Shown here piece by piece: positions 1-47,061 of a DNA stretch of 64,000 nt. The DNA comes from an uncultured Planctomycetales bacterium. GTDB lineage: Bacteria > Omnitrophota > Gorgyraeia > Zapsychrales > JAHFFX01. Made by a program: the position numbers and the translations under genes. Where the stretch lies: assembly GCA_964612665.1 (NCBI GenBank), contig CAZTCI010000001.1, positions 508,896 to 572,895 of the forward strand, in the 5' to 3' direction. Position 1 is the stretch's first letter; the number at the start of each line of letters is the position of its first letter. The notes below the pieces were generated by a model that was given only the letters and a program-made list of their open reading frames with translations, was not told where the DNA came from and made no database searches.

Positions 1-3000
1 ATGCAGCACACTTCCTAAACTGTAGTAATTGGGAAGCGGTCGCGTTAAAACAGCGGTCAAGAGACCTTCGACCCAGGCGAGGCGAATGTCGACGTGCTCT
101 GTTAAAGAAGTGATTTGATAACCAGGCTGGCTTTTAATAAATTCCCACTGCTGCTTGATTTGACGCACAAATGAAACGACGCGGTCAAACACCGACTTGA
201 TTTCGCCAGCTATATTGTCGTGCTGTCTTTTAATTGTTTCGTTGATCTCTTTAATTAAGTCCATTAGGTTTTCATAACTGAACTCTTCTTTAATGGCCAA
301 TGAACTTTCTCTTTGAGTGGCAGCATCAGTTATCTCATCCCAATAAGACTGCACAGTTTCAGTAATAAGCTCCAGGGCGTTTCTCACATCATGCAAGCTG
401 AATAGCATTACTGCTTCAGTTTCTTTACCTTCTTCTTTATTCTCCGACGGAGGGATCTCCTCTCCAAAAAGACCGGCCACCAAATTACAGAGTCTTTCTC
501 GTCCAGCGATCTTCGGAATACGGATGACCTTACCTTTATAATCTTGGTTAGGTTCAACTTCAGTCCAGTATAAAGAATCTGTAATACCATACCCTCTAAA
601 ATCATAAGCCAGGATATCGTCGTCTTCACCACTTCGAATGATCATGGGATTAGGGAATCCGATTCTTTTCATTTCCACAATCAATTCAATGCCCGCATTA
701 TTCTTTCCCATCTGATTATCCGTCAACAATAAGTCAACGAGTTTTCCTTCTGCCAAAAGCTGATGATACGTTGATAAAGCCTTTTCCTTGTTGGCAGCCG
801 TATATACTTGATAACCTCTTTGTATTAAATCATTGGATATTGTCTCAAGCACGTCTTCGTCGTCGTCAACCAGCAAAATTAAGCGTTTATACGCCTGAAC
901 ATTGGGAGTTAAAATGGATAAAAGAACAATCATCATTAACCAATCTAACGACACAAAAATGCCTAATGTGGCTCTGGACTCCACTCGCGTTGAATTCTCC
1001 AACCCATTGAACCACCGTTCGACAATTAGCTCGAAATTCCGCAGTTTCGGATCGAATTGCGCTCTCATTTGGATCAGAAGCGATTGGATTTCCTCAATAT
1101 CTCTGAGCGAATTCATTCTAAAATCGGCTTCAAGAATTTTTCGTAAGGAATCAATTAGATATTGTTTCCCATCGGGGATAAAGGCCTTAAGTAATTCTAC
1201 GATTCTGGTCCTCGAGAATCCTCTATTCATCAAGCGCAAAACATGTTGGTTATTTAAAAAGGCCACAATATTAATTGCCGCAAGAATGTCGACATCTTCT
1301 AGGAGGAAAAGCATTTCGTTTAGTGAAATAAATTGCCCGGCTATTCTTAAATGCCAACTGAAAGAAGTCTTAAATTCTTCTTTTCTCGGCAGGCGATCCG
1401 CTTTATTTACAATCCGCATAAAACGCGCCAGCGAATTGATGCCCATTAGATAACCATCAAACGGTCCTTGTTTTAAGAGTTGCATTGCGAATATATCAGT
1501 CAAAAACTGCGGCGTAAGATCCTTTGTGTCCGTCGTCGAATAAAGTGGAGAGCTACGATTGAAAAGCTCTCGAAGGAACTCATAATAGGACAACACATTT
1601 TTCTGAATGTCCTGATAATCAGAAACTCCCGCATCAACAGCCAGCGCCACGGCCTGGCCAAGCAAAGCCAAGTACTGCGGCTGGCTGATTCCGACGGGTT
1701 CAGTGAGTCTCCATAAATCAGAAATTAGCGTGTCGACACTTACTGGAATATTATCTACCCCAATTATGTGCTTGAATCGATTGAAGCTGGCAGCGACCAG
1801 ATTCTCATCGTTCCTAGATTTATCCAACCAAACTTTCTGCCACTTTTCAACCGATGAGAAGAATTCCACCTGAACAGCCGCAGGTTGTCCAATATCAGCA
1901 TCTAAATTCTCCTCGAGAATACGACCGTTGCTCAACACCAAATAATTAACAGGAAGCATTCGGATATAATCCAAATACATCAAACGATCCTCATCCCTAA
2001 AATCTTCAATCGCCGGTTCGATGAGAATGATTTGGATCGGTACTTTGAGACCAAACACCGCCTGCATGAGGGCAATAGCAAACTTCTTAAAAATGCAGTC
2101 AAATGCGGTACTGCCGATCAAAAAGACAGTCAATTTCTTGGAGTCTCGCTCTTGATTTTCAATTAAAGATTTCAAAAACTGGGCGGTTGAATGTCGCGAA
2201 TTGCTTGCGTGCCAGCGCTGAATTATGCGGTCAGGGCCGACGGGAGGATTCTCCGATTCGATGGCCGAGGAGAGAATTTTGCAAGGTTGCTGTGCCACTG
2301 AAAGTTCTTTCACGTCAACCGTTTTTTGATTCCACAAAATGGAACGTAAAAGATTGCCTGCTATTTTTGCGGCACTTCCTTTTGGCGAAGCCGAATAATC
2401 ATTAACAACATCGATTCCAATGCCCCGTACCGCCGCGATAGCTCCTACTGATACGAACAAGCCTGTCACAGCGCTTAAAACTGTCGGCAAAATCTGCGCC
2501 AGCATCCATAGGAAGAAGGTTAGAATATCACCGTGGGGTAAAACGATCATTTCATAACTTTCTTCATCCGACGACATAAATAGTTCTTGACCTTCCAACT
2601 CTTCTTCTAACGATGACAGCCCTTGAAACTCCTGCGTCAGATGTTCCCAGCTAAGTGGTATCTGTCTTTCTTGTGCCTGTATCATGACCAACTTTGCTTT
2701 TTCTTCATCCACACCTAATTGTTGAGCCAGGGCTTTGGGATTATTAATTAGCTCGTACCATTGTTTTTCTGTTACTTGTTTTTGCAAACGCCAGTAGCGA
2801 AGTAATTCTTGGGAGTGACCAAATTTCGCTTCCAATAAGCGTTTAACCACGTTTCTAAAAACAGCTATTACCATGTTATAAGTTAACGCGCCTAGGGCCA
2901 TGAGATAAAATGAGAAATGGAAAGAATAAACTGCTTTTGCTTTTGCTTTTGCTTTATCTTTATCCATCTTGAACTCTGCATCGGTAAATGCCAGCAAATC

Positions 3001-6000
3001 TGTGAATATAGAAATTCTGACTTGCCATTGACTGGAAAGTTTATTCCACGCTGTTGGCTTGCCATCAAATGTAATGATTGATGGCAATTCGTAAGATTGG
3101 CCCTGGACTTCTGAAATCCAATATTGTCGTATCCGGGATTTACCGAGAAATGTTTCGTCACTTCCAACAACAACGAGTTCTTCGATCAGTAATATTTCGA
3201 TAAAAACTCCCTTATCTTTCGCATAATCCATAATAATAGCGGCGGCATTCAAGAGACAATCGCCATATTTCCCGCCGAGCAGAACAACCTGAATACCGTT
3301 TTCTTGGAGAAGGAGATCTAAGAATTTATAAATACGCTGACGGTCTTCTTTAGAAGATTCATGAATTTTTTCGGGCTTGGGTTCTTCTAATTCTTGAACT
3401 ACGATCCCACGCTTTTTTAATAAAGTAACCAAAGATTTAAAAATCGGCTGCATCTCTCTTCCCAAATCACCAGAAACGCTACGATAATCCCTAACTTCGA
3501 AAATTCCAATTGTGAGAGACCTGATTCGATTTATAGCTACAAAAGATTCTTGAGATGATGTGTATTGATTTCGGCGTTTTTGTCGTTGAATAATAATAAA
3601 CTTGCCAAATTCAAAGATAACTATGCCCAAAATAATACTAACCATTCCCACAGTAAATCCCAACATCCCGGCCGTTTCTTTGGTGGCCTTTAAATAAATA
3701 ACATCCGCCGATAAATCTTTATGACCACCCACATTGATAATCATCTGCTGTTCATACGCTAAAGAAAGCGCGGCCGCTTCGTTGATTTCAAATCCGGCGG
3801 ATTTGACCTGAGCGATCAGTTGGTCTTTAAGTTCGCCGAGCGGACCAAAGGATTCTTCAATCATTTCACCATTGAAGGAGACGAGATGTTTAGTTGCCTT
3901 AATAATATGTATTTCACCTCCATGGGAAAGGACGTTATAAACCTCAGATAAAACTATGGACGGCCTCGTCGATTCAAGCACGAAACTAAGCAAGGCCACA
4001 TCAAACGTCTCTGGCGCAAACGACAAATGCTGGGCGTCTCCATTCACCCAGAGACCATCGCTTACTGTGTGTTGCACGATGCGTATCTTTGAGAAATTAT
4101 TATCTAATCCAACAACGACATTCCCCTGTCTTCTTAACTTACCGGCGATGCCGCCGGAACCAGTACCTACATCCAAAATACGATGACCGCTCCCAATTTC
4201 CTGCAGATACCAAAACGAGAGCATAAAAGAATTATTAATAGTGTGCCGCAACAAATCCTCCAACGTTATGATGATGGGCTTACGCACGGCGGCAACAGAG
4301 ATCATTACTACAAGCAGCATCCATTTTATTAATCCGACGAACCAGATCATCGAAATCAAAGAATAAATATCTACATACAGCGAATTATATTGGCCTTGTT
4401 TATAATGTTCATTCGCACGCCTGATCAATTCTTCATGGATCCGATCACCAATCGGAATCATCCCTCGCCGGTGATTATCGGCCAAATATCCGAGCGCCTC
4501 TGCCAATGTTTGCGCGGCGATGCCGAAAAATAGGCGGACATCATTTGTGCCCATTATGCGGGCCGCGGGATTGGGCGCTGGGGGTTTTTCACGCGCGATA
4601 AACTGGCGGATTTCTTCCAGGACATTGAAGACTTCGGTGAGTTGTTTGAGTGTCTTGACCGATAAATGCGGTTGCGGTTCAACAAAGACAATTGAGTTGA
4701 CCAAGGCCAGCAGATGGTTTTGAATTTGATATGCATAATTATCCAGGTCTTTTATATTGGTCTGCTCGGCAACATGCATTTCATAATCTAAATCTTGATT
4801 AGGAAGATCAAGGATTTTGATCGACAACAGCCCTTTGTGTTGCATCTGTTCCAAAGCCGTGTACAAGGCGGCCATTGATTCCATGAAACCTTCACCCGAC
4901 GGAATATAAGTTTGATTCTTTAATTTCGGACCTTCGCTTCTCTTATCTTTCTTGGGCACAGACTCTTTCTGCGTGTAAGGTAAGAAAACGGCGCCTAATT
5001 TTTGGTTGTCTTTCTTGCCATAAAGGAAAAATTCAATCGCCAGCTGCGGAAAGACCCGGACCGTTTTGGGCAAAGCATCAATAGAAAATCTTTGTATTGT
5101 GACGTCCGCTTTCTTAATCGAGACATACTTGGGGTCCTTAAAGAAAATGACCGCTTCTCCATAATCCGTTGAAATCAGGAACTCAACCTTTTCGCCGGCT
5201 GCAAGATTTTGCTCAACCGCTTTCAAATTGATCGTCAATTCAGACTGGGAATTCTGTTCAAGTACTTCTTGTTGGGAGATCGGCTGTCGTCGAGGATGAT
5301 AAGAAGCAACGTCGAATGAACTTCCTTCCAGCAGCATAAGGATAGTTACGACCAAATAGATATTTTTGAAAAGTTGGAATGAAGATTTAAAGCGCGACGC
5401 GAAAACAGCAATTAAAACTAACACCGCGATAATTACCCAAAACTCTTGTGAATGAATAAGGGAAAAATTACTTCCCTCATCAACAGCATTCAAATCTCCA
5501 TTCTTGGCTCGAACTTCCCAAGTTTTATCAGCTTGTTGGTAAGAATTCTTTTGAATCGCCTCTCTAACTCTTTGAGTCAAATCATTTTCGTCGATGCCGC
5601 CAACGTCGATCCAATTCACGAAGGCAGCAATAATATGCTCCTGAAATTCCTCCGAACTTGCCGACATCCTCACTCCGATTTCCATAAATTCTTTGGCCGC
5701 CCTTTTGAGTTCTTCAATGGCTTGACTGCGTAATGACAAATCCTCGATGCTTCTCGCCAGCGTCCATCTCAGCTGATTGTTTAAATACCGTATGAACGTC
5801 TTTAATTTCTCCATATCTCCCTCGAGTAACTTAATTTTCCATAATTGATTGGCCAGCCGGCTGATCGTTTCAAATGCCTTTTGCCAGGTCTTTTCCGACG
5901 ATGAAAGCGAAAGACGCTCTGCCATTAAAAGCAAAGTCTCATCCAAATATTTCAACTCATTCGATGGATAAAAAAATAAATAGCTATCGTAATCATCCAT

Positions 6001-9000
6001 GCGTCCCATTGCGTGGCTATGATAAAGATCTCGCTCGGGAACAAGGGCGATATTCAAAACATAATCTCTGAACGGTGCTTTTTCATAACTGCAATTTTTT
6101 TCGTATCTAAGCCAACCATCGAGATTTTCCATCGCCATTGAAAAAGATCCACGAAGTCCCGGGTTCGCCCTCCAAGCAACGATTTTCAGTAAGAGCTCTT
6201 TCAGTTTGTGATTTTCAAGTAACCGGCCCGTCGCTTGTCCTTGCCAGTTTAGTTCTTCCACATTAAACAACATCTGCGCCAAATATTGCGGAATCGAATT
6301 TAGTCGCCCTTCGGTCCCCCAAAGATCCAGGGCATTTGTTGACTGAGGATCGTTCGAGATCGCAGGATCAAATGTTTTGAAGTCCAGCGCCTCTTTGAGC
6401 ATCCATAACGTTAGATCCTCATAAGTAAAATCGGAAAATCCGCCATTACGCAAAGACAACGGCTGCTGTAATTGTTCACTCATAACAAAATAAAGTCCGA
6501 TCAATCGTCGGAGGCCTTGAATCAGCGGCGGGAAGTCAATCGGATAAGTTCTTTCTTTATCAAAGTGCATTCCAATTGTTCGCACATGCAACAAAAAGAA
6601 TATCGATGTCCAGGCGGTTAACCATTGTTCTTTCAGTTGTCCACCTGCCCAAAACCACATTCGTCGGGTTCCTATTTCAAATGGTTCGACATCCTCAAGC
6701 GAAGCCAAGCGCACAATATCCTGATTGGGATGACCATACTTTGATAACCAGCCTCTGGCTTTCCAATACCGACGCAGACAATCGCCGATCAATGAAAGCT
6801 CTTGCTCCGAAAGTGGGAGCAAATGACCATCTCCTGTCTCACTATCCATTCTTTCAGAAGTAGCATTCACAATTAGATAACCTAAGAGCTTTGTGAAACG
6901 TTGACTCTCGTGAGTGAGAGAATCAAAAATGGTTGAAGCATTAGCATTATGCAGGCTATACAAAACATATCTTCTCTGCTTTTCGTTATAATGTTCCGTA
7001 TTCAAATCTATCTTAGAATCTAACGTAAATTCCCACGCAGGTGGAAGTAACATGCCTTGCGAATTGATATACCCTAGTTGAACAAGATCATTAAATAACT
7101 GTGGCAAGTCTTTGTCAGGAACAATCCCCTTAAAACTTTTCAAGCTTACCGCATCATATTGATCGAGGAGGTTTGTCAGTGTTTCGATCCATTGCGCAAC
7201 GGGCCGCGATGTATTCTGAGCATTGGAATCAGTTAAAGTAACTTTCTGCTGTCTGACTGAGAGACGACGCCAGAAACTCTCTCCCCATGACAACTTCAGC
7301 ATCATCAAAATCCCGAAGACAATCAGCGCAAGCCATCCCCAACTTCCTTCCGCACCCGTCGTTGGCCAGAGAATCAGATGGCTGCTCAATTCATTTCCCG
7401 ACGCTGATTGAGCACTCAACATCACGATCCCCATCGCAGCGGCAATCATTCCGCCGCGCAGGCGTCCCCAAAATCCTCGTACTAAGCGAATTGCTAACGT
7501 AACAACGAGACCCGCAGTAATGACGGTCAATAATCGATTGAGAATAGATTGCAAAAGGTTTGAAAAAATAGGGTTGTGCTGCAGGAAGGAAAGAAGCGGA
7601 GTATCTTTTTTGCCGACGGGCGGGGCGTTGGGCTGCATCTTAGCATAGTGCCACACAATCAAAATACTAACGCCAATTAAAATCAATAGATATTGCACGA
7701 GTGAGTAGGTGTCCATGTTGAAAATGTTATTTGTTTTAGTCTCCCGATCAAAACCTCCATCCCGTTCGGCGAGCATCAGAAAAGCCGTCTCGGCGATGTG
7801 CATGTCGCTGATGCCGTGATGCAGATAGATTTTATGCACGCTGCGCGTCGAAAGACCGTTTCTGACGAGGCCCAGGTCCCAAACGCCCTGTCCTAACCGC
7901 AACCGATCACCGATTCCAGCGAGAAACTCCGGCGATGCATCCGCGACGGTAACAACCGGGGTGAACTTCCGTTCAGTCTTTGGAATTAATTTTTCTAATT
8001 GTTCGAATAGATTTTCTCTTCCTAACCGTCCAAGAAGAAGATTGGGGCTCGTCACCACAATCACATTGGCGTAAATGGGATAATTTTTATGAAGTTTCAA
8101 AAGCTCGTCGGACGCGGACAAGGCGGCCTGGACCATAGGACCGATGGCGACGATGTTAACCACATTGTCATCGGGATGGTAATCAGGAAGATGGCTGTAA
8201 TCGACGAGCCGGTAACCGCCTTTGAGAATTTCTGGGCCGAGACGCTTGATGGCGGCGGGTTCATTAAGGCCGGAATAAGTTTTCTGTTCCCGCAACCGCC
8301 GGAACAATCCGCTGCGTTCAACCAACAGGCTCGATGCGCGGATATACACGGCGTTACGCCCGTGGTCATGGCCGGTCAACATAAGTTCAAAGGTTTTTTT
8401 CAATATATAATCTAACTCGTCAAGAAAAGCCGGTTCCCACATAACCGTGTTGGGCATCGCCCGGCCGATGTCCGCCGAGACACTCGATTGATGTTGAGCA
8501 CCGTCGGTGGCCAGCGTTGGGCCGGACGGTGTTCCGACAGCAATAAATTGTGAACCCCAGTACTGGGCGTAAAAAAATTGATCCAGCGCCCGGCGGAATA
8601 AAAACATATCATAGATCGTAACAACCGGAATCAAACGCACGCCAAACAAATCATAAGCCTTGCCAAAAGCCGCCGCCAAGGTCACGGCGTTCATTTCTGT
8701 AATGCCAATGCGTAAATGATTTCCCGCAAATGAATCGGCGCTGACAACACCTTGAGTGGCGCCAGGAGCAATCATTCCCGTAGATGATCCAACATCCGGA
8801 GAAATCGTGACCAACCGCGGCGCTATTTTCTGCCAGAAGCGATCGTCTTCGGAAAGGTCCGCCGCCGCCGATTGACTGAGTAGACCTTTCACCCTATTAA
8901 TCGACATACCCAGATATGTCTGCGTTGGAATTCTCCCGCGGGCCGGTGAATAAAGTTTTTCCGGCCAGATTTGATTCTTTAATTCTGCTTCAAACGCCGC

Positions 9001-12000
9001 GCGGTTTGCATCGATCATTTGCTGCGCTTCGGCGGCTTCATGATCTAAACGTGAACGGACATTCTTAAGTGTCTTAAACTCGACGGAAGTTTCATTGAAA
9101 TTGGGGAATGGATTATCTTGCGGCATGCCTAATTCGTTACGGACCTGCGCCAATTCTTCGGGAGTCAATAACTGCGAATGGTTTCCTTCCTGACCAATCA
9201 TCGGTCTTAGACCCCAGCCTTTGATCGTATGCGCAATAATTACCGTCGGGCGATCGCTGGCGCGGGCTTCGCTCAAGGCTTTGATTAACTCAACCAAATC
9301 ATGGCCGCCCAAATCGGTAAAGAGCTCATAGATTTTTTCATCGCTGTATTTCTTCAAGAACCGCTTTATTGGCCTTTTCCTTTCCAAAGAGAGTTTCTTA
9401 TTCTTATCATCCAAGGGAAAAGGCCTAATATTGACTTTTGTTTCTTCCTTTGGATTCACAAAAGTCAATAAAGAAGAACGTTGTTCGATCATCCAAGCGC
9501 GGATTCCGGCGCCGTTTTGAGCGGAAAGATTTTGGTAAACTTTCTGGTCGATTGTTTCCATAACTTTCCTAAAGACACTTCCCCCTCGTCGGGCAAAAGC
9601 CGCTTGCAATTTTCGGCCCCAGCGCAGTTCAACGACTTGCCATCCAGCCGCCGCGTACATTCCGCGCAGTTGATCCAATTTCCAGTTTTCGGTATTTCCG
9701 TCGAGTGATTGGCGGTTGTAATCGACAATATGCGTCACGCGGTCCAAGTTAAATTCTTTCACTAACGTCAGAATCTCCCGCAGGTTTCCTTCTTCAGATT
9801 CAGCATCACCCAAGACCGCGAAGAAATGCGAATCAGAAACCGCATGGCCATGCGCCTTGAGCCATTTCCAAACAACGTTAAGTGCTAAGGCAACCGCCGG
9901 CCCTATGCCAACCGAGCCCGTCGGAATTTTGACGCCGTCCGGGTCCGCCATTCCCGGATACGCGTGCAGGCCTGGTTTGTCTAATTCATCCGTGTTGACT
10001 TCCGGATGCTTGGCGATGAAGGCGGCTTTTAATTCTTCAAGTTCTTTTAAGACTTCTGGCGCAAGACGGCCCCTGATATCTTCAGCCCTGAAATCAACCG
10101 GCAGCCGGACAGCGTTATCACGCAAACGATAAAGTGTATCGACGGGTAATCGACCTAAAAGATATTGAATGGCATGATACACCGGCGCGGCGTGCGGTTT
10201 GTGGGCGACAAAATCATGACCGCGCATGACAGCCAGCTCGAGGGCGATCATAATGTGCAATGCAGACGCGGATGCAGCCTGGTGCCCGCCGGTTTTAGGC
10301 AGTTCATATTTAATTTTATTGGCTTCATCAATTTCACCGATTGAAATCCCAAGCGCCCGACGGGCGATGCTTTCTAAAGCTTCGATGTCCTTCGGTGCAA
10401 ATCCTTCCGGAATTTTATCATTTCTATTTCGGGGAGGCCGGTGTCCGGATGAGCTCATTGCAACAATCATCATCGTGGACAAGAACAACGCAGCCACATG
10501 TCCACCTACGAAGTAGGACACAGCCAATAGTCCATCCAGTGCCAGCGCGATGAGGACAAGCGCAGTTGCAAATACGGTGGAGAGGTTTTGATCTGAGCAT
10601 TCTTTTATTCCATTTTTTGTTTTTTTGGTTTCCTGAGCTGAAAACTTTTTCCACCAGGCAAACGTTTCACTCAAACCCGTCCCAATATTCTTTTGTCGTC
10701 TCAACTTGTTGACAATCAAAATGATTAATGTTATGTTGGCGTCGAAAAGATCATTGATCAATAATTGCGTGGCCCTCTTTGAAAGATGGGAGAATCGTAA
10801 GTGAAGATCTGGGAATTTGAATGGGACAACTGGAATATTGAGCATATTGCTAAACATTCCGTAAAATCTCAAGAGGTAGAAGAAGCTTGTTATCGCCGCC
10901 ACGTCGCTAAGAAAACTAAAGATGACATTTATCTTGTCTATGGTCAAACGTATTCTGGCCGTTATCTTTTCATCGTTATTAAATATAAATCTAAAGGAAT
11001 TGTTTACCCTATAACCGCTCGAGACATGACTGATTCTGAGCAGAGATTCTTCCTTAAACGGAGGTAACATATGATTAAGAAGTCTTCTGTAATCCCAAAA
11101 TTTAAGAATGTCGCCGATGCGGCTGAATTCTTCGATCAACATGATACGACCCAGTTTCTCGACGAATTGCAACCAGCGCATCTTAAGTTCCCTAAGCCCA
11201 AGCATCTTTTGATCACCTTGAAACCTAAACAAATAACGAGGCTCAGACGCTTGGCCGACAAAATGGGTAAACCTTCCGATCAAATTGTTGAGCAATGGAT
11301 CACCCAAAAACTTGCCGAAGGGTAATGATCTGCCCAATGTGGCACGGCTCAATTTCTTTACAATCTCTTTAAAAACGCCTTTCGCTTTATCTGAGGATTT
11401 GGTTCGAATCGTCAGTATCAACAGCAACACATCAACGGCCAACACAAGGAACATCAAATGTAATCCCGGTCCCGGAACAAAATATCCTTTAAACACAACC
11501 ACCGGACGTTCCTCATCAGGCAGAAAACCTAATTCCTCGCGGATCTCCTCGGGAGATATTCTTAAAATATGTATGGGCTGAGGATGATCTTCAAAATATT
11601 TTAAGAACAGGCTTGTAATCGTTTGTCCGTTATCAGAAGCAATATGAAGACGGCCCAGAATAAAAAACGTGTCTTTAGCAGCTTTTCGGCCGCGCGATAA
11701 GATATTGATCATATTGGGGAACATGAATGGTTCCCTTAGGTCAATAGCGAATCTAAAGTTCTCCGAGACATTGATCCCTTTCAAAATTTCTTGAACAGCG
11801 GGCTCGGCCTGGCCGACGACATGATTTTCGCGTTTGGCTCTGGCCATGAGGGCTTTTATAAAAACAACAGTCAAATCACGCCAAGTTGTCAAGTCTTTAA
11901 GCATGTCCGCTGAGTTATCCGGGGGCAATGTTACGATCGCGGAAAAAACGAGACTGTTCCGGGTGTTGTAATAAAGAGAAATGCGTCTGTATAACGTTGT

Positions 12001-33000: not shown

Positions 33001-36000
33001 ATACACAATTCCCTCAGCATAGAGATAATATTGGATTTGTGCATGGCTGTTATTAAAAATGCGGATATCATCAACCGAAAGATAATGCGGCCCATCAGGA
33101 TGATTGTGCAGGTCCAAATAAACGAGGGGATAATCTGGATTTAGTTCCGGACCGACGGAATCCTTATCGCCTTTGACGATACTGTAAAGGTCCCCTTCCA
33201 AGGATTGATGGGAAACTTCAAAAGGTAAATATCCAGAGGCGACGGTGTAAAAACGATCAATCGCGCGCCAGAACTCCGGCGTCCCGACGGCCGCGGCAAA
33301 TGGTCGAGCGCTGTAGCGTGTTCCTTCCTTCGCACTAATAATATCCTGCTTTATCTGATCGAGCGTCATGACTGGCCGACGCTGGATCCGGGAGATAAAC
33401 TTCCGACGGATGAATTCCTGGGCTTCCAGTTCATGGACGGCCATACCGATTATCGCGACCGCCGTCAGGCCGAGCAGGCTAAGCCAATCGGTATAGGCGG
33501 AAAGTTTTTCCACCTTCCCAACCCCGGAGGTTGGGGAGGATAATAATTTTTGGCTAAGATCTGCAGCCACATCCAAGTTTTCCAACACTTTCGTCGCATC
33601 TTTAGAACTTTTAATAAAGACAACCGCCTGAGAAACCGCCGCCGATATTGTTTCTATTTCGCCGATCATCGGAAAACTTCTCTTCCAAATAGCAAACTGG
33701 TGATTCCACGCAGCCAAACGCAGTTTGATGGCCAGATACCTCTTATCGGCCCATAACTCCTTCACTTGATCTCGGGCATGGACCATCGACGGGATTCGGT
33801 CCAAGGACAGGAGCAATCTTTCCTGATTTTCCCGTCGTTGTGCTTCCTGAAGTTCCCGTAATTCTTTTCTAATTTGCTGTAGTTCTTTTAAACTATGGAA
33901 CAATTGCTCAGTGGACGGGCCTTTAAGGACCGTCCGCGACATAGCTGCTGCCATTGCCCCCATCCCAGCAGAGAGCAATATCTTTCCGACGGGGATTCCA
34001 AACCATAACGCGGTCCCCCCATCTACACCTACGAGGTAAAGATGGATCCCCACTCCATACAACGCCAGTGCAATCATGACGGATGGAAATATGGCGAAAA
34101 GTTTTTCCACCTTCCCAACCCCGGGGGTTGGGGAGGATCTGAGGATCACCGCCAGCATTTCAATTAGTCCAACCAATCCCTTAAACACAATCCAAATCCA
34201 CACGGCTTCGATCGTGACGGCGGAGACGTTCTCGATGGGATTGTGATCGAATTCTTCTAGCGCATCGATTTTTCCGTATAAATATTGGGCCAAATGGCGG
34301 ATATCTTTTCGATAGTCGTGCGTCTTAACCAAATCCCAGAGGTTCAATTGTTCCCATTGATCGCCGGCAGCTTCGAGAGCTGCTTGGATTATCTTTAACC
34401 ATTCCTTCGCATAGAATTCTCGATGACGGAAATTGGACGCCACAATCCAGTGCAGTAATTCTTCTTCGGAAGATGTCTTCAACATCTCAATCGCGGCCCG
34501 GCGTTTGGCTGGCGAAGTGACCACCAAATCATTCATCCGCAAATGCTCGTTGAGAATGTGCTTCAGGCGCCGAGTCCTGGCAGAATTCGCCAAGCTGGTT
34601 TTATTTGTGAAGTCATCAAGAGAATTGAACGGATTGTTTAGCTTGCGAACCATCACCACAAATTCGGTCTGCGTCATTGTAAATCCACTCAAAAGAAAAT
34701 CCACCTCATCAGCGTAATTAAGGAAATATAGAATTTGTTTTTTGGTGTTTTTCGGGTGCTTCTGCAATTCTCGACGATGTTGCTCCGCATTTTCTTTCTT
34801 CTCTTTTCGTCTTTCGTTCTCTTTCTCTAAATCCGCCCGTGCCCTTTCACGAGGATTCTGAAATAGAATCTCTCGACGGTTTTCGGACGTTCGTTCCCAC
34901 GACATCGCAAAGACAAAGATATATGCCAGCAACATCCACGGACTGAACAGATAAGTACGAACTCCGGAATGATGGACGATTTGTTTCTGTGGAGTTTCTT
35001 CTTTAGTTGACAAGCCAACTTTCAGGGCTTGGGCGCGGCTGGCGGAGAGGTAAATCAACCGTTGAACAAACATGCCCGCGATCATCAGCACCGTAAAGAC
35101 ACTCATTCCCGTCGATAAATCGATCGTCACGGCGCGGTGTTTTTCGATATCAGAAGAACGACTTGGTGTTTTATCTTGTGCATTCAACCTGCGGGGTTGA
35201 ATGGACATCCTGTTCCCCTTCACACCTCCGAGGCGCGAAAGAGCATTATTTCTTAGCTTTTTACGAATACTTATAATTTTTAACACTGAACGAATATGCC
35301 ATTCTCTTAGCCCCAACCGCTCTTCCCGGATTTCTAATCTATCCCCAGGATATTTTTCAAAATCTGCAGTCACAATTTCGATAAGCCGTTCCCTTTTTTC
35401 TAGCTTTTCTCTTAAACGCACTCCCGCGGCTTTCTGCTTTAAGAACGTTAAATCATAATCCGGCCATATTTTGCTAATAATGTAATTCGACACTTGTTCA
35501 ATGTATTGATGCGATGATCCCATCTGTTCGACAATGATGCTTGATGATTGATCCAAAGCTATTTTGCGGACTAACACTTCTTTTTGCGGGAGCGTTAGTC
35601 CATACCTATCTCCTATATCGTTAAGGGTCCTTACAAGTCCTTCTTTAGTGATGGCATAGCCACTACTCTCCATAATGTCGCGAGCAAAACTTACTCTATT
35701 ACCATGCTCCATCGCTGTCTCCTGAGACGATAGAGAAGATCGGTATTCCTGGATCCCTTTTTGGCGATCTCGGTTTCGCGCATATGTATTTCGTTCGCCT
35801 CGAATTTTTAAATTAATTCCATTAACGACATATGTCAATAAGCCTACGCCATTGCGCCGATCAAATTTGATCACACTGCTGCGAATAGTTTTAATGAAGT
35901 CATCTGTTCTTTCCTTTAGGAAGGATCTATTCCATCTCTGTTTAACTAAGGGCATTTCTGTCAGACCGGCGATGAGGACTTCCATCGCCAAACCATCTTT

Positions 36001-39000
36001 CTTATCTTGAATAAGGTCAATTAAACGGCTCTGTTGCTCACGGCTTAAATATCCTCTGGAATGACGTGGCATGCCCAAGATCGTATTGACAGCGGCTTCA
36101 TCTCTTTGCTGAGGAGCCCAAATAATTTTAAGTTTAGACTCTTTAATAACCGGCACAGGAGGATTCAGCCCGTACCATTTCTTCATTTCATAAAGAATTT
36201 CTACTGAGCTTTTTCCTTTTAGATCGTGATTTTTTGCCCAGTTCAGCAGAAGCCCCTCTAAACATTTTCCTCCAAACCCTGGAATACCTGTATGAATAAT
36301 ATCGCCCACTTTTAAATCTACTATCTTCCCTGCACGGCGATGATTGGCTAGATGTTGAAGGATCGCCCATTGCAACCGCTCTTCAAGTTTGTCCCAGGAG
36401 AATTTCCTCGCCCGTCGGAATTGATCCAATACCGTTTCCAATTCTTCAAGGGTTACTGGTTTTTCTTCTGCCATCGTCATAAGAACAGCAGATGCGCAGA
36501 GGACTGCTATCCACGCTTCCGCACCTACGAGGTGCTGATGGGTAACCATGGCGACGAAAGCGGCGGAAATGATGATAAAGCGGAAGACTCCGTCGAGGAA
36601 ATCATTCAGTCGGCTGGGTTGAACAAATACAATTCGACGCAAAATGGAATTCACATTGTCTTGGCCGACATACGCAAGCGCCGCCGCAATTCCTACCAGA
36701 ACAAAAATCCATAAGGATGGACCAACGGCCATCAGTTTTATCTCTCGATCCCAAAACTGACTTGGCCCACACCGGCGGACAACAAATTTCTTTTCCAAAT
36801 CCTCTTTGACCGTCGTCACATCTTCTTGGACGATCGCGTCCGCCACACGTAAAGAAAATCCCATTTGCAGGGCCTGACGGCCGGGCATGGATGGGCTATA
36901 TCTCAAGCGAAGCCCCTGAATCAACGCGCGATAGGGCGCTTCCTGTCCCCGGAGAAACTTAAGGAAGGCAAACTGTTTGATTTCTTTGGTGGATACGGAG
37001 GTTTCAATATTATTTCTAAGATACGCTAAAAATTCTTTGTAATAACTGACCCAGTGCTCAAGGATTCTTTCCAGCCCCAACTCATTTAATTGTTTGTTCA
37101 AACGATTTGTGTTCCCAAAGACCAAATCTGTCGGTTTAAATTTATCAAATGTATCGGAGGTAATAGGACTCAATAAACAGCGCTCATTTAACGTTGATAC
37201 ACTGAGCTCATGCTTTTCGCCCCCGATTCTGACCCACCGCCCCAATCCCCGTCGGGCCAGGGCAATGAGATATTCGGGTTCGATATCAAATTGATCTTTC
37301 CCTTGATAATAAACGTGAATGTCCAGGTCCTTGATCATGGACCACAATGGGATTTGATTTTCGCTAAAAAGATAGGTCGAGGAGCCGGTGACCGTGATGA
37401 TCGGAGCCTCCACAATGGATAACGTAGCGACTTGCTTTAGAAGTTCGATTAAATCGACCGGCGGTAAAGCTGGATTGTCTGGCTGAACAATAAACTGGCG
37501 CTCAGGACGATAGTAGGAAATGTGTTCATCTTGGTCCACGATCAAAACAGGCCAATGCACTGTTTGGACCGCCGCCAGTAATATCAGCGCGTAGACCGCC
37601 TCGTTCAAACCGATCAGATCTCCGTGGGCCAAAAGACCGGATAAAGCCGCGAGGATGGCGATAGGGCGGAAGAGTTGTGCGATCAACCTGCGGGAGTGAA
37701 CAGACTTGATAAAGCGGAAAATTCCGTCGAGGAATAACATCACCCTCTCCGACGGCGGCGAAGTCTTGAGAAATTCGTAAAACGCGCGGAGGTTTTCAAG
37801 GATGACGCGGGATTTGGAGATTAGAACAGCGGCCATCAAAACAATAATGAGAATTTCCGCGAGGTGAAACACATTATTCGACGAAAAATTTGATTTTCTC
37901 GTCGGTCTTATCCGTGCAGTCGAAAGGAAATCGATTCGATGGGCGTTCAACGTCGCGGCATCTAATAATTCAAACCCTGGGAATGTTTGATCGACGATAT
38001 GTTTAATCAAATCCGCCAACTGATCCGCAGGGATTTTGATTAGATATCCTGGAATTCGGTGCATCTGCTGAGGACTAATTTCCCTCATCTCTTCTGCAGT
38101 CAAAAATTGAACCGCGGCCATCGATACAACCCGGCCTTCTAATCTGTTGACAGTCCATTTTCGCGACATTATACTTTGAATCGAAAAGGAGATAGATTGA
38201 TGACTTCTCTTCAAGATGCTATGAAAATCATTAAACCGCTTCAAAACCGTTTCAAGAAAAGCCATAAGTCCAGAAGAAAAACGAAGATTGCCGACGATCT
38301 TTTGGGTGCGTTCAAAGGTGCGACCGAAGGTAAATCTTCCAGTCAATGTGTTCGAGAATTGAGAAATTCTTCTTATGGTAAGTTTAAATAACCCTTCCTT
38401 GCTCTTGGACTCCGATGTCCTTGTCAGCTGGTTGACGCTCGAAGAAGATATTCTTACCCATAAAAAGCTCTGGGAAGCTCCCCACAAAATAATGACAATG
38501 GTTGAGGAAAATTCTTCTCTCGGTTGTTCAACGATTATCAATCTTATGGAAATCAGGTTTGTGTTGCGTGCTAAGAAGAAATTCAGTGAGCATAAGATTA
38601 CATCTTCTCTTAATAAACTCTCCGAGATTCTGAAGCTATTCATTCCAGATGAAATCAACCTATTAAAGGCGAATGAACTCCAGTCCAAATATCTTTCATT
38701 ATCGCCAACCGACGCTATCCTTCTGTCTGTGGCCACAACCCTAGACAATGTTGTCCTAATCACCCGCGATCGAGAATTATTGAAAGCTGCCTCAAAAATT
38801 GTCTCCGCATCAACTCCTGAAGAATTTCTGGCGAAACGCTGATCTCTTCTGTTCCAATAAAAATTCCCCACCAGCATTGCAATTAGCCCAACCACTCCCT
38901 TAAACACAATCCAAATAAAGCGGAAAATTCCGTCGAGGAATAACATCATCATCTTCGACGGCGGTGAGGTTTTAAGAAGTTCGTAGAACGCGCGGAGGTT

Positions 39001-42000
39001 TTCGAGGATGACGCGGGATTTGGATAGCAGAACAGCGGCAACCAAAATAATGATTAGAATTTCCGCGAAGTTAAAGGAGTTATTCGTTGGAGAATTCGAT
39101 TTACCCGTCGATCTCGTGGCGAGAGCTCTGCTGTCCTGAGATCTTCTTTCTGTGGTGACGAAAGTTCCTACCCTTCTTAAAATTTTGATAACTCTATCCC
39201 TTCCCTGAAGGTTATTAGAACTCTGTCGAGATTGGGGTTGTTCAACGATCGGCAAAGTGACGAAAAAGCTGGCGCCCTGGCCCAACTCGCTCTCCACATC
39301 AATCTCTCCATTGTGCGCCGTAATAATGCTTTTCACAATGTAAAGTCCCTGGCCGGTCCCGTCTTTTCCTTTCGTCGTGAAATATGGCTCGAAGATTTTA
39401 GAGACCAGCTCGGGCGCGATCCCGGGGCCATTGTCTTTCACCTCGAATTGCACGAGGGGCGCATTGTCGATTGGCGTGACGATCAACTCAATCTTTCCGT
39501 CTGGTATCTGCGCTAAGGTATACACCGCATTCTTTAGGAGATTGATAAACGCATGCGTCATCTGAATTTGTTCGACATCGATTCTAATCCCGGCGGCAGC
39601 GGAAAAATCAATCTGAAGTTGCTGTGGATCGAAGAGAGCGAAGATCTCTTCAAAATGTCCTCTAAGATTAGTCAAGAATTCCTCGACGGAAATGACTTTC
39701 TTCTTACCTTTCCCGGAATAACTGAGATAAAAATCAATGATTATTTTAAGCCGGTGGGTAACGCTGTGGAGGGTTTTGAGGACTTCACGCTTGGCTTTAG
39801 GCTCAACGATACCTTGATCGATATTTTTGTCTTGCGGATGCTGGCGGAAATCTTTGACGAGCTGCTTCCAGGCGCGATGAAACTTTTTCAGTTCAGGTAA
39901 ATCATCGAGAAGGATTTGCAACGCCAACATAATTAACCTTTCGCGCTGTTCTTGTGTAAACGGTTGGGCATAATTTTCAAGCACCTGTTGTAATGCCGGA
40001 TTGAATAACCCACCTATTGGCCTTTTCTCTCTTAAAGATAAGGTTGTTCTGTCATGCTCGGGGAGAAAAGGCCTAATACTAGACTTTTGCAATGCAAAAG
40101 TCAGTAATAACTCCGCTCGCTGTTCTCCTGTAAGCAGCTCAGCATATTTTTCAAGCATCGCCCGTTTTAATTCTGGGTTTGATAATGACTGAATATCGAC
40201 ATAAGGTTGATCAGATGCGGCATGGTTGCGAAGAATCTTCAAATCATTAATTTTCTCGAGAAGATTTAAATCCATAATATTCTCACTCAAAGATTGCATA
40301 GCGGATTTGAATGGTTCCGGCAAAATATCGGCATTACCGTTTGCCGGATCAAAGAATAAAGTAATCACGGTCAAATCATTGCCGATTTCATGCAGGAAGA
40401 CCGGCCCCAAATCAGCGATGATCCCCTGCCAATAATCTTCTTTTGGTATCCGCATTACCATAACGACAACCATCGATAGTCCCAGCAGCCAATTGAACGG
40501 CATAATGTATACGGCGTTTCTCTCGGTTGGGAGCTTCATAAATACATATTCCCTTCTGGCCACTGTCTGAATTTCAAGACCAAGCGGCTTTCGGTTTAAC
40601 GTTTTGAGCATTTGGGTGATAAAGTTTATCCGCCGCAAAACTGATGTGATCGGCATGCTGCTGCCATCACCCAACGTCGTCCCTGGTTTTTCTTCCAGCA
40701 GCATCTCCATGGTCTGCCCAATAACTGTCAAGGCCCCGGACAGATTTATGACGACGGGCCCGTCTGTAATAGAATTTCTAAACGCCGTCCCCATCACATT
40801 GCTTTTCCGCACTAAAGCGATCAAATCCTTGGCCTTTGGTGTCGTATCATTGCCAAACACAGGGTCGGATTCTGCCTCCTGCTTGACGTTTAGCATTGCT
40901 TCCAAAATCAATCTTGCGGACTCGCGTGCCCGTGTCGGATCTCCTAACGCTTCGCGTTGGCCATTAACAAATTTAACGAACTTAACCAGCTCCGTGCGCA
41001 GAGCCTTAATCCATTGCGGCCATTCTAGGTAATAAAATAATTGTTCCAGGACTGCCATAATAAGGAGCGTGCGTTCTCCGACGGGTTGGATTGGATTTCT
41101 AGATATTTGTTCTTCTTTCTGTTCAATGTCTAGAATCAAATGCCAGACTGGCTCTACAAATGCTTTCCTCTCAAGCAAGCCCCTTGTATATTTGAAGAAA
41201 TCATTCTGAGATTCATGATGACGCAATACTCGACGGGCAGCCAAACGGGCCATGGGATATTTCATGGAGCCGATTAAATCAGTCAACGTAAGATAATTTT
41301 TTACAAAGCTGCGCAATCCTGGCTCTTCAATCAATCCTTTAAACTCAATCAGCTCGGAAATAAAACGGAAATAGAAAACAAACCGTTCTCCGCCGGCCTT
41401 ATAAAGGATCCGTTTCCTTCCCGTGGCGGAAATAGGCCTATCATTTAAAACTTCGATCAGCCAAGCAGCGATCAAAAGTCTTAATGCCTCCATGTCCTCA
41501 TCCTCAACCGGCCCACTTAAAATCCACGCGCGTTTTTCGTCGGTGGAAAGGGCCAGGAGATTATCGAGACCAGTATACTGGCCGCGCACCGCCATCAAAA
41601 ATACCGGAGCGCTCAGCAACATCAAAGACATTCCCATCCATAAAACGGTTTTGATGGCGAGTATAACCAACATCAATCCGCCCACGGCGCCGACCAAGGC
41701 GATGGAATGCAATTTCTCCTCGAGCTGCGCGATTTTATTTTCTATTCCATTTGTCTTTTCAGATTCTTGGTCTTTCTTCCCGTTTCCATTCAATTCAGTG
41801 GAATACGCTGTCAGAGTGAATAATTCTTTTAAGTCCTCTTCCCATTGCTTATGAAAAGGAAGGCTCTCTGCATATTCCTGGAAGAGACCTGCGCGCAGCT
41901 GACGCCACACCATATGGTCGAGCAAGACCTGACCATTGATGACAAATGCCTGCGCAAAGTGTCTTAATTCCTCGACGTAGGCCGGATATTTCTGTGAGAT

Positions 42001-45000
42001 CTTTTGTAAAGAAGACAATTCCTCGGATAGAGAATCTTTCTTAAGCAAAGCATCCACGTATTGTTCAATCTGTTGGCTTTTAGCATAGTCATGGTCTTGC
42101 GATAAACGGATACGTTCTTCAATACGATCCGTGGCTGTTTCAAAAGCAATGATCCAATCGGCATCAGAACCGGAGAATTCCGAGACATAGCTTGATACCC
42201 TGGACTTTAATAAAAGCCTGTGCGTCGTCCCGGCCTCACCGTTACGGGCGATACGGGCCATGATTTGTCGCATATCACGTTTGGAAAAAAGAACGTTGTA
42301 AAGAACAGCCACAACGCCGGAGGCAACATTGGTCAAAATATTCACCCCTCGGCCTCCCATGGGACTGGTAATAAGAATCGTAATCTGTAAGCGGCCTTTC
42401 TGGTTAATAACATAACCGGCCTTTTCAAATTGACCGGCTTCTTCCCTGCGCTTTTCAGGATTTTGATCGATCCCTAAAACAGTCTCAATCTTGATATCAT
42501 TGTTGGGCCGGCCTCTTTCCAAGATGGCGTTTAATAGTTCCTTGACATGATGGGCCGAAGCGATATCTTCCGTCGCGATAAAAACCGGCCTTCCTGACAA
42601 TAAAGCATTCATAACAATTTCGATTAAGCTTTGGTCCATCTCTTCCACGGTCTCATATCCGATGGAGGAATGATCAACCCGGATGGATTTGATATCGGAG
42701 GGTTGAACATACACTTGCATGTTCAATCTTTTCTTTAAATGCTGTTCAATCGTCGGACTCATCTCTGAACCACTGACCGCGGCATAGCCATGTCTATACA
42801 ACTTTAAAAGGGAGTGATACGTCAAGGCCGCCAAAAGCCGGCGCGGATTCTTTTCATTGTCGATACCGGAACGCGCTTCTATCATACGTTGTACCTCGGG
42901 AGAATAAACACGCAAAATGTCCGGGCGTTTACTATCGTCGGGAATAGGCAATACATTTTCACGTTTAGCATCTAAACAAAAATCATGATCCTCTTTAAGG
43001 TTCCAGCCAATCACCGCAAAGTCCGCCAGCTGACGCAAATGCGCATCAGAGATTTCATCTAATTCCCGACGATTTCTAAGAAATTCCATAATCTTCCGCG
43101 GGTCACGCCAAACCACTTGTCTTCCCTGATCGGAAGAAATAATCTCTTCGGGATTCGTAGCCCAATCTTTCAACAAAAAGAAGACGTCCTTATCAAAACG
43201 ATGCCACGCTGTATAGGCTGCGATAATTCTCTTCACTAATTCTTTATCCTTACCGTTGACGATGATGTCGATCGACAGAGTATTCAAGACGGAGAAGATA
43301 TCCCAAAGATAATAATCCGCCTCATCCAATAAAGCCCGACGATCAATGGTCAATGGTTGTTCTAAACTTTTTCTGGTCGAAATTTCTCGCGCCAGGGCTG
43401 TTAAAGAAATATATCGGATCTGTGCTTTGCCGGCTTCAGCCCAGAGAGAGGAACCAAAAAATCTAGTGAACCTTTTTGACTGGCCCGGAATAAGTAGTGT
43501 ACGGGACCCTTCGGTGATGCAGCTTACGGAATGCCCCAAAGAAGCCAAAATCCCGGCCTGACTGTTAAAGCCGTCTTGGGCCAAATGATCTGTCGTGGTG
43601 ACGATATCCGTTGATACACCCATTTTCTCCAGAGCATCGGCCGCCATCGACAAGGCCATGGTTTTTCCGGCGCTGGTATCAAACTTGACAAAATATCCCC
43701 GCGATCCGTCTTCGGTCCTCGGTTGCATCAAGAGTTCAGCAGTTTTAAGTTGTGCGGGGCGGCGTTGATACTTAATCATAATATTCTTATCAGCCATCCT
43801 TCGACGCGCAATGACCTCAAATTCCTCTAATGATTCCCTAATTACGTCGGGAAAATATTCGCTCAAGGATAAAGGCAGATCGGTCCACGCCACGCCATTT
43901 TGTATCGATGTTTTAATAATTTCTTTTTGTTCACTGAATACGTTCAGTTGAGGGGTGGGAGTCTCGTCGATCTCCCCAATGATATTCGCGGGCGTAGATA
44001 AAGATTCCATCTGAAGTCTTTCTGCCTCCTCTTCCAACGGCGAAACTTTTTCCGGACGCTGGAACTCAAACGACATCTCGGGTTCAGGAGGCTGAAAAGC
44101 AATTCCAAAATAATGGGCGAGATGATGGACTGACTTAAAGAATCTTTCCATTGATATCTCAAATCTTCCTTGTTCATAATTCTTCACTGACGACTGGCTT
44201 AATTGTAGAATTTCGGCAAATTGAGTTTGAGATAAGTCCAGCTCCTTACGAAGATGGGTTAAATTCAAGAGATATTTTTTCAGTAAAGCATTCTGTTGGC
44301 TGTTTGGAGAGGATTTCGCTTCTTGTTGAACATCATTGATGAATTCTTTCACTTCCGTCGGGACCTCACTGGAAACATTGTCCATTAAGAAATCTATAAC
44401 CTTCTTCATTGACTTTGCGCTAAGTTTCCATGCCTTGGCAGAACTTGCGTGATCTACAATATATTTTTGCCCTCCCATCGACGCGATCATTGTCTCGACA
44501 GAGTATCTCTGCTTAAAACGATTTAGTAAATGCTTAATCGGCTCGCTCAATCTCTTAAAAATTTCGCGTCGTTCTTCTCTTGATGCACGCAAAGCTTGTG
44601 CATACAAAAGCTGTATCTGCTGCTTCCACTGCTTAATGTCTCGAGACCACTCACCAATGGGCTGAACATCCTCATTCTGCCCACCGAAAGTAGAGATGAT
44701 GATAGATTCATCGATGAGCTGAACATTCTCATTCTGCTCAAAAGCGATAGGAATCTCGTCCGCCTCTTGTAATGAAATCAAGCTAGAGATTGGCTTTTCT
44801 TCTTCAATGAACTGAGTATCCTCATTCTGCTTACCGATCAAACTTTCATCGACCTCAGGCAAAGTTAATTCAAAAGTCGTTTCTTCATCGCTTTCTGGAG
44901 TAAGGATGATGATAGATTCATCGATGAACTGAACATTCTCGTTCTGCTCAAAAGCGATAGGAATCTCGCCCATCTCCCCAATTCCATTCGTGGGCGGAGA

Positions 45001-47013: not shown

Positions 47014-47061
47014 TAGCTCATGGAAAAATTCCTTTGTGTCTTGAACGATGACCTTCCAACT

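Follow-up and report, generated by a model that had tools for sequence, protein, structure and literature searches.

A likely fragment of a giant membrane-threaded multi-domain gene, with predicted antisense toxin–antitoxin operons nested inside its open frame

A stretch of 64,000 nucleotides from an uncultured bacterium (assembly GCA_964612665.1, contig CAZTCI010000001.1, positions 508,896 to 572,895 of the forward strand), here called the window, was analysed computationally. The window is probably an internal fragment of one giant minus-strand gene of more than 64 kb and more than 21,333 codons, belonging to the published Omnitrophota class of membrane-threaded multi-domain giant proteins (West-Roberts et al., 2023; 10.1101/2023.11.21.568195); the gene and its class are judged together, as a single reading. 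An initial annotation had described heterogeneous modules fused in one frame, and this description was borne out by matches to more than 10 Pfam families and by about 50 membrane anchors, all in the same frame. Two toxin–antitoxin (TA) operons were predicted on the opposite strand, wholly inside this frame, which is stop-free over both.

The open frame and its bounds

Six-frame translation of the window gave one minus-strand frame of 21,333 codons with no stop codon in all 64,000 bases, and 849 to 1,344 stops in each of the remaining five frames. Codons of the giant frame were numbered such that codon i occupies window positions 64002−3i down to 64000−3i on the minus strand, and the amino acid (aa) positions given below follow this numbering. 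The frame was missing from the listing of open reading frames (ORFs) because it runs off both edges of the window. At 21,333 aa or more, cut at both ends, it exceeds the threshold of at least 10,000 aa used in the catalogue of long proteins described below. The initial annotation had placed the feature at positions 1 to 47,013; its one-frame character was confirmed and its upper bound was not, position 47,013 being a Leu codon in mid-frame. The four peptides quoted there all fall in the giant frame (aa 18762, 19894, 21022 and 8352/8754). The GC content at the three codon positions (GC1/GC2/GC3) was about 0.51/0.35/0.47 and constant along the entire frame. Scans of the 64-kb window for tRNAs and Rfam families gave no matches, and a tandem-repeat scan of its DNA found one trivial repeat only. 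The features discussed below are collected in Table 1.

Table 1. Features of the window, with their positions, strand and supporting evidence.
Feature	Window position	Giant-frame aa	Strand	Evidence
Single open frame	1..64000		−	Stop-free, runs past both window edges; all minus-strand Pfam domains in the same frame
vapBC-like operon (predicted)	38147..38842		+	Promoter 38147-38175; antitoxin-position ORF 38200-38391; PIN toxin 38375-38842
brnTA operon (predicted)	10709..11325		+	Promoter 10709-10737; brnT 10801-11067; brnA 11071-11325
SecA-like ATPase, divergent	41965..43761	~6747-7345	−	SecA_DEAD 24.9 bits (cutoff 24.6); P-loop_SecA 22 bits
Histidine-kinase ATPase and possible upstream dimerization (DHp) helix	39247..39792	~8070-8251	−	HATPase_c E = 2e-22, 80 bits; N/G1/F/G2 boxes
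E1-type thiamine-diphosphate (ThDP) enzyme, complete, bracketed by transmembrane (TM) helices	7753..10413	17863-18749	−	Transketolase_N, Transket_pyr, PDH_E1_M
Class I S-adenosylmethionine (SAM) methyltransferase	3910..4176		−	Methyltransf_11 E = 5e-14; motif ILDVGTGSG
Response-regulator receiver (REC)	577..879		−	Response_reg E = 6e-10, 39.7 bits; VDDDED, LLLTD
FAD/NAD(P) Rossmann start, oxidoreductase-like	20302..20490		−	DAO E = 1.6e-9; NAD_binding_8 E = 1e-8; GGGIFG...YE
LuxR/GerE-type helix-turn-helix (HTH)	13450..13587		−	GerE E = 1.6e-14, 2 stretches
Sigma-70 region 4 HTH	31987..32109		−	Sigma70_r4_2 E = 2.5e-9
XRE-HTH block, two copies 75% identical	43957..45669	6111-6347, 6441-6681	−	Self-BLAST E = 3e-89; HTH_3/HTH_19/HTH_31
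Further XRE HTHs	59701-59856, 28813-28941, 26059-26232, 17149-17604		−	HTH_3/HTH_19/HTH_31
JAMM-like motif HNHPDGPHYLSVDD, unconfirmed	33067..33108	10298	−	Strict H-x-H-x7-S-x2-D pattern
Seven-member family of related anchors	29101..39180	8274-11633	−	All-vs-all comparison of anchor neighbourhoods

Antisense operons nested in the frame

Off-frame ORFs were screened against Pfam, the six longest first and then all 90 of at least 70 aa, and three of them were matched. One is the PIN toxin gene of the vapBC-like operon, which matched its Pfam family over the full profile (E = 9.5e-9), is 35% identical to an annotated VapC and apparently keeps the four acidic positions, as judged by eye; no sequence match to this ORF was found in the PDB. 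The operon opens with a promoter of the form TTGACA-17-TATACT (11 of 12 matches), followed by AAGGAG and then by the ATG at position 38200. The ORF that begins there, of 63 aa, overlaps the PIN gene by 17 nt; it had no family match and was assigned as the antitoxin by position and overlap only.

The other two matched ORFs form the brnTA operon. BrnT matched BrnT_toxin at E = 9e-7 (29.5 bits, under the cutoff of 34.5) and shares 39-43% identity with annotated BrnT toxins across 91-94% of its length. BrnA matched CopG_antitoxin at E = 5e-9 (37.2 bits, cutoff 28), to which NCBIfam adds a weak match only; no match to the BrnA ORF was found on plasmids. The promoter reads TTGACA-17-TG-TATGTT, brnA starts four bases past brnT, and the two genes are coupled through a GGAGG-TAA-ATG junction. 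In the reading direction of the giant frame, the operon precedes the E1 module by about 130 codons. Adjacent small toxin and antitoxin genes with their own expression signals, by which a type II TA system is recognized, were found in both operons, with family matches to both genes of brnTA and to the toxin of the vapBC-like operon, and the systems are predicted as such from the sequence.

The codon usage of the giant frame dips most deeply over the vapBC-like cassette, to 0.06-0.11 versus 0.26 ± 0.06; there the GC1/GC2 pattern is inverted and the translation is rich in F, S and R. A second dip lies over brnTA. When the 71 plus-strand ORFs were ranked blind by their own score minus that of the giant frame, the three Pfam-matched TA genes came out on top. 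About 1.2 kb of the giant frame is the reverse complement of plus-strand coding genes and, as judged from codon usage and family matches, this part of the apparent 'protein' is antisense read-through of real genes. Milder codon-usage dips were also seen at window positions ~50874-51324 and ~19000-19449 (giant aa ~4226 and ~14851), where the off-frame ORFs (e.g. 50996-51487, plus strand, 163 aa) had no family match.

Continuity of the frame across the nested operons

The codons TTA, CTA and TCA, which give stops on the opposite strand, are absent from the three genes that overlap the giant frame codon for codon, and none occurs in brnTA. The TA protein sequences were held fixed and their synonymous codons redrawn under host usage; the opposite frame was then open in 0.6% of the trials for brnTA and in 2.8% for vapBC, with 4.4 and 3.1 stops expected, respectively. 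These figures led to rejection of the proposal that such openness is astronomically improbable: filtering of the insertions, or a handful of synonymous changes, suffices to account for it. The open frame over both cassettes suggests selection for uninterrupted translation. Since the frame is kept open over stretches without plausible protein function, ribosomes would have to pass through them; this counts against internal initiation and is neutral as to later cleavage.

Nested genes of a similar kind were seen in related loci. In a locus of Ca. Omnitrophota nzgw316 (L016), two overlapping ORFs matched to DUF433 and DUF5615 (E = 6e-21 and 5e-18) lie antisense within a frame that is free of stops over 4,870 aa or more, together with an antisense ORF for a retropepsin-like aspartyl protease (E = 7e-14); the nested ORFs occupy positions 3236-4843 on the minus strand, within the host frame at 3-14612 on the plus strand, and the codon usage of that giant frame dips at them. 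In a second locus (L008), a weak ParE/Gp49-type candidate (E = 3e-4, below the cutoff) was found at positions 8562-9061 on the minus strand, in a plus-strand open frame at 2-22762 of at least 7,587 aa; an 81-aa ORF abuts it upstream and codon usage dips there as well. A DUF5678 match (E = 6e-7), whose position was not located, was also recorded among the off-frame ORFs of these related loci.

Antisense or nested genes are not mentioned in West-Roberts et al. (2023) or in Nielsen and Lui (2026; 10.64898/2026.06.07.730766), and a full-text literature search returned no description of antisense operons nested in giant genes. The nested antisense TA operons thus appear to be a new part of an architecture that is otherwise known. 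On the loci at hand we would tentatively propose, as a generalization with somewhat less than even standing, that giant Omnitrophota ORFs routinely carry functional antisense TA operons and that their frame is kept stop-free across them. If this is true, uninterrupted passage of the ribosome is selected and a single chain is produced, a point of direct relevance to the question of one protein or many. The cassettes may then be addiction modules that guard long, recombination-prone genes from deletion or, alternatively, insertions specialized to be 'transparent' in one antisense frame.

Cargo modules

Pfam scans were run on overlapping 1,000-aa tiles of the giant-frame translation and yielded about 10 domain types. 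The XRE HTH was the commonest (about eight copies), none dominated, and TPR was also matched. The LuxR and XRE regulators, AceE-type E1 enzyme, SecA-like motor, methyltransferase and FAD oxidoreductase named in the initial annotation were all recovered by Pfam in the giant frame, as were the histidine-kinase core it had placed at 39.2-40.0 kb (the HATPase_c match itself spans 39247-39570) and the REC domain at 0.6-0.9 kb. The acidic pocket and the acceptor Asp of REC are intact. So is the GxGxxG motif of the FAD module, whose match covers the first 65 profile positions only. Several of the cargo segments look like intact domains from proteins that normally reside in the cytoplasm.

The E1 module aligned with E. 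coli AceE at E = 2e-28. It shows the three-domain layout of this enzyme type, together with its ThDP motif (GDG-x25-30-N) and, in the pyrimidine-binding domain, its catalytic Glu. Its GDAE...N and GITE motifs align with GDGE...N and GINE of AceE, and these sites are invariant in the family alignment.

The SecA-like module aligned with SecA sequences of the PDB at E = 1.3e-8 and keeps the motifs SAGKT, LLDEAD, SGS, GGRGVNI and RIARNGEAG; the Walker A, DEAD-type Walker B, GRG and arginine-finger motifs of the two SecA nucleotide-binding domains (NBD1 and NBD2) are all represented. The alignment stops after NBD2, so that the helical scaffold, wing and C-terminal domains are lacking, and a TM anchor lies within about 90 aa of the last ATPase motif. 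As judged from these motifs, the embedded module is a SecA-like motor and not a canonical SecA.

The JAB protease of the initial annotation was retained as a motif and no further: the strict pattern is present, the segment that carries it had no Pfam match even at E ≤ 1, and a single-sequence AlphaFold2 model of it reached a pLDDT of 41.

A repeat array of a single family, as in adhesins, which the initial annotation had set against its own proposal, was not found. An internal paralogue (E < 1e-5) was detected for only about 10% of residues, and only three related pairs were found among 47 cargo segments. The internal duplicates have ratios of nonsynonymous to synonymous divergence (dN/dS) of 0.19-0.61. 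The XRE-HTH block of about 240 aa is a recent internal duplication (dS 0.21, dN/dS 0.61) directly upstream of the SecA-like module. Two large cargo segments without domains, at window 1-3186 and 55282-58400 (giant aa 1-1062 and 1868-2907), were recognized as distant paralogues of one another, being 22% identical across some 600 aa (E = 7e-29); neither had a Pfam match, and they may represent a family specific to giant proteins.

Membrane anchors and internal starts

A hydropathy scan of the giant-frame translation gave 55 to 84 TM candidates, depending on the threshold, or one per 270-390 aa. These were grouped into about 50 anchors of one to four helices each, which divide the chain into about 47 cargo segments with lengths of 72-1,109 aa and a median of 242 aa.

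In the initial annotation a 'Met + TM helix' had been read as an independent N-terminus each time it occurred. A Met was found near the helix start in 31 of the 84 TM candidates, versus 22.6 ± 4.0 at random positions, and at the mirrored helix-end position in 36 of the 84. Met makes up 4.8% of residues within helices versus 2.5%, and the cluster-initial helices had a Met in the start window in 18 cases of 47. The cue is non-specific, because the mirrored control is higher and Met is about twice as common in helices. Nor were Shine-Dalgarno (SD) motifs enriched at the in-frame ATGs (5.5%, versus 8.5% at random positions). The reading as independent N-termini is therefore not supported, and there is no sequence evidence for internal starts.

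All-vs-all comparison of the anchor neighbourhoods revealed the local family of seven related anchors. A GKVEKLSA-type junction precedes several of them (four exact-pattern matches, 0.23 expected), and the pattern L[DE]xxWxxIxxKG lies within three of the seven (0.04 expected). The two most alike copies, 78% identical, flank the vapBC cassette; iterative extension of a hidden Markov model from these two recruited no more copies, which the all-vs-all comparison in a small database did. Beyond this local family, no junction or cleavage motif common to the anchors was found in the window.

Relatives of the SecA-like and E1 modules

Word-seeded protein searches with the SecA-like region and with aa 5001-10000 found no homologues. 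When the SecA-like region was searched exhaustively with HMMER against 1.84 billion representatives, only 166 matches at E ≤ 1e-3 were obtained, all of them weak and the best 24% identical. Among the matches are long TM-rich proteins of the same build (e.g. P0036, 6,657 aa with 37 TM candidates), and an insertion in NBD2 is common to these proteins and the module in the window.

The E1 module covers 94-95% of stand-alone E1 proteins, and its homology ends exactly at the flanking anchors. Its closest relatives in a genome scan, at 46-48% identity, were in metagenome-assembled genomes (MAGs) labelled Omnitrophota and in two labelled Planctomycetales; these were followed by two Omnitrophota MAGs (38-39%), an unclassified MAG (37%) and then Acidobacteriota (about 30-36%). 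In a metagenome scan based on the E1 alignment, no relative exceeded 34% identity. The tetranucleotide profile of the window correlates with that of the Omnitrophota E1 loci at r = 0.79, versus 0.48 and 0.65 with other phyla.

Sets of E1 loci were compared (L003-L016 versus L009-L082 and L083-L162). In Omnitrophota-type loci the E1 module lies inside open frames of 1,459, 1,862, 4,636 (complete), at least 4,870, at least 4,969 and at least 7,587 aa. In Acidobacteriota, among others, it is a stand-alone protein of about 1,060 aa; it is likewise a separate gene in all 80 metagenome loci, and neither there nor in Acidobacteriota do the open frames exceed about 1,530 aa. The initial annotation had proposed looking in relatives for stand-alone genes of the modules, and for E1 they were found. 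The Pfam content of the E1-bearing relative ORFs is also heterogeneous, and these ORFs share no detectable module with the window except E1 and one HATPase. As a comparison of sequences, the graded E1 series suggests stepwise gene fusion. Growth by the fusing of complete genes is supported by an E1 that is full-length, stand-alone elsewhere and flanked by modules that are not shared; the same comparison supports, at the sequence level, fusion followed by shuffling or rapid divergence of the neighbouring modules.

Two further arrangements were noted among the E1 loci. An Omnitrophota contig (L006, positions 3-6554, plus strand) is open from end to end and carries two consecutive E1-type copies (aa 73-872 and 918-1645). 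In GCA_964583975.1 (contig CAZOXU010000009.1; L001/L013), an E1 relative of 1,428 aa is encoded some 1.6 kb away from two genes for T2SSE-type secretion ATPases, with one helicase gene between; this neighbourhood recalls reports that type II secretion genes lie close to giant genes. This MAG carries the label Planctomycetales, yet its E1 groups with the Omnitrophota copies.

Interpretation and rival explanations

Under the reading preferred here, the gene would have grown by the fusion of once-independent genes and by internal duplication; its translation would start upstream of the window and proceed without interruption to yield one chain. The frame would be held open by selection even over the reverse complements of the two TA operons. 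At each anchor the chain would enter the inner membrane during its synthesis, possibly with the aid of its own SecA-like motor, as West-Roberts et al. (2023) proposed, and the outcome would be a row of enzymes and regulators tethered to the membrane.

Several points weigh against this reading. Neither end of the gene is inside the window, the start codon and the N-terminus lying outside, and the case for a single chain is built from the sequence alone. No exact match to either window end was found in genome or metagenome contigs. The phylum call depends on the neighbours of one module and on composition, the window having no marker gene. The TM calls come from the hydropathy scan only and include at least three false positives, which proved to be an NBD2 strand in the SecA-like module, the strand of the Rossmann fold in the FAD module and an F-rich segment of antisense read-through; the parity of helix counts between cytoplasmic-type domains is not consistently even and varies with the threshold. 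Lastly, the continuity of the frame over the cassettes could reflect the survival of rare frame-compatible insertions and not ongoing per-site selection.

The best placed of the rival explanations is a true polyprotein, made whole and then cut by its own or other proteases into module-sized, membrane-anchored products, as the initial annotation had it. Its heterogeneous cargo and the intact-looking enzymes precisely bracketed by anchors, such as E1, fit this; a JAMM-like metalloprotease motif is present, and in other giants cleavage has been ascribed, as a proposal, to C39 and S8 peptidase domains situated close to the N-terminus. Nevertheless, no peptidase family was matched by Pfam at E ≤ 0.01 across the 21,333 aa, the JAMM segment is without profile or structural support, the junction motif is confined to one local anchor family and the Met-before-helix cue is non-specific. 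What stood of the 'protein string' is therefore the heterogeneous one-frame series of enzymes and regulators, and what did not is the cue for independent N-termini. Later cleavage into modules is possible, with no positive support in the window, where neither a protease family nor a shared junction motif nor a special Met signal was detected; a true polyprotein is held to be unlikely, although its probability is not negligible.

Separate translation of the modules from internal starts in a stop-free frame, in effect a disguised operon, is highly improbable. Several modules do start near a Met, and E1 has stand-alone homologues. However, SD-like motifs are rarer before in-frame ATGs than at random positions, the Met near helices is explained by composition, and separate products would leave nothing to keep 64 kb open, antisense operons included.

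An artefact or non-gene, whether produced by assembly, consensus polishing, chance or a mosaic of ordinary genes on both strands, could draw on the two real operons coded on the opposite strand inside the frame and on the lack of a close relative of the window in public data, but is very unlikely indeed because the codon-usage signal is strong and uniform except over the two cassettes, more than 10 Pfam families are matched in the same frame where about 900-1,300 stops are expected by chance, the blind codon-usage ranking yields only the three TA genes as better coding on the other strand, and the same build recurs in independent MAGs.

Significance

If made whole, the products of this class of genes would rank among the largest proteins known. 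The graded E1 series, from stand-alone proteins to ORFs that measure 1.5, 4.6, over 7.6 and over 21 thousand aa, offers direct comparative evidence of growth by gene fusion between anchors. Opposite-strand operons that do not break the frame provide a sequence-only test for selection on frame continuity, which could be applied to hundreds of published giant ORFs. They also carry a warning, in that parts of such 'proteins' are antisense read-through and not protein domains.

Comparison with known systems

West-Roberts et al. (2023) described Omnitrophota ORFs that reach 85,804 aa. Numerous TM regions are present in every one of them, and most have divergent SecA DEAD domains with neither scaffold nor wing; whether the products act as as one chain or after cleavage was explicitly left open by the authors. 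'Giant' proteins have been defined as those of more than 30,000 aa. Like these 'Archaeovorin'-type giants, the window has a huge single ORF, many TM helices, a scaffold- and wing-less divergent SecA DEAD domain, methyltransferase content and domains of low similarity to their ordinary homologues. In contrast to them, the Pfam scan of the window gave no glycosyl hydrolases or transferases, NUDIX, dockerin, TSP3 or beta-helix domains, and the window is rich in DNA-binding HTHs and two-component parts.

Nielsen and Lui (2026) catalogued 916 proteins of at least 10,000 aa, among them a 'multi-enzyme' class tiled by many Pfams. They reported a co-occurrence module centred on PF08241 and PF02518, with PF00072 and PF07517 also recurring, a TM helix about every 370 aa, and singletons as 80% of the sequence clusters. 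The window resembles their class 1 ('multi-enzyme') and their Module 1 (signal transduction/regulatory) in its many Pfams, none of them dominant, and in the presence of PF08241, PF02518, PF00072 and PF07517. It also resembles their long proteins in TM density, in unique sequence and in having nearly no nucleotide tandem repeats.

Viral polyproteins, such as those of picornaviruses and flaviviruses, likewise join unrelated modules, some of them membrane-anchored, in one frame; the window differs from them in that no protease module or recurring cleavage site was detected, in being 10-fold larger and in its cellular context. With RTX, Bap and Ig-like adhesins, which consist of tandem copies and one anchor, the window shares extreme length, whereas only about 10% of its residues are paralogous and its anchors number about 50. 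The nested operons resemble VapBC and BrnTA operons in their overlapping or coupled gene pairs, with the antitoxin first (VapBC) or the toxin first (BrnTA), in the acidic residues of the PIN domain and in having their own sigma-70-type promoter and SD sequence per operon; unlike ordinary VapBC and BrnTA operons, the cassettes lie wholly inside, and antisense to, a stop-free giant ORF. In this respect the window also departs from the descriptions in both papers. The architecture itself is not new, because it matches the published Omnitrophota giant and 'multi-enzyme' proteins on every feature that can be tested in a fragment, and the window is a sequence-unique, regulator-rich example of an architecture already described.

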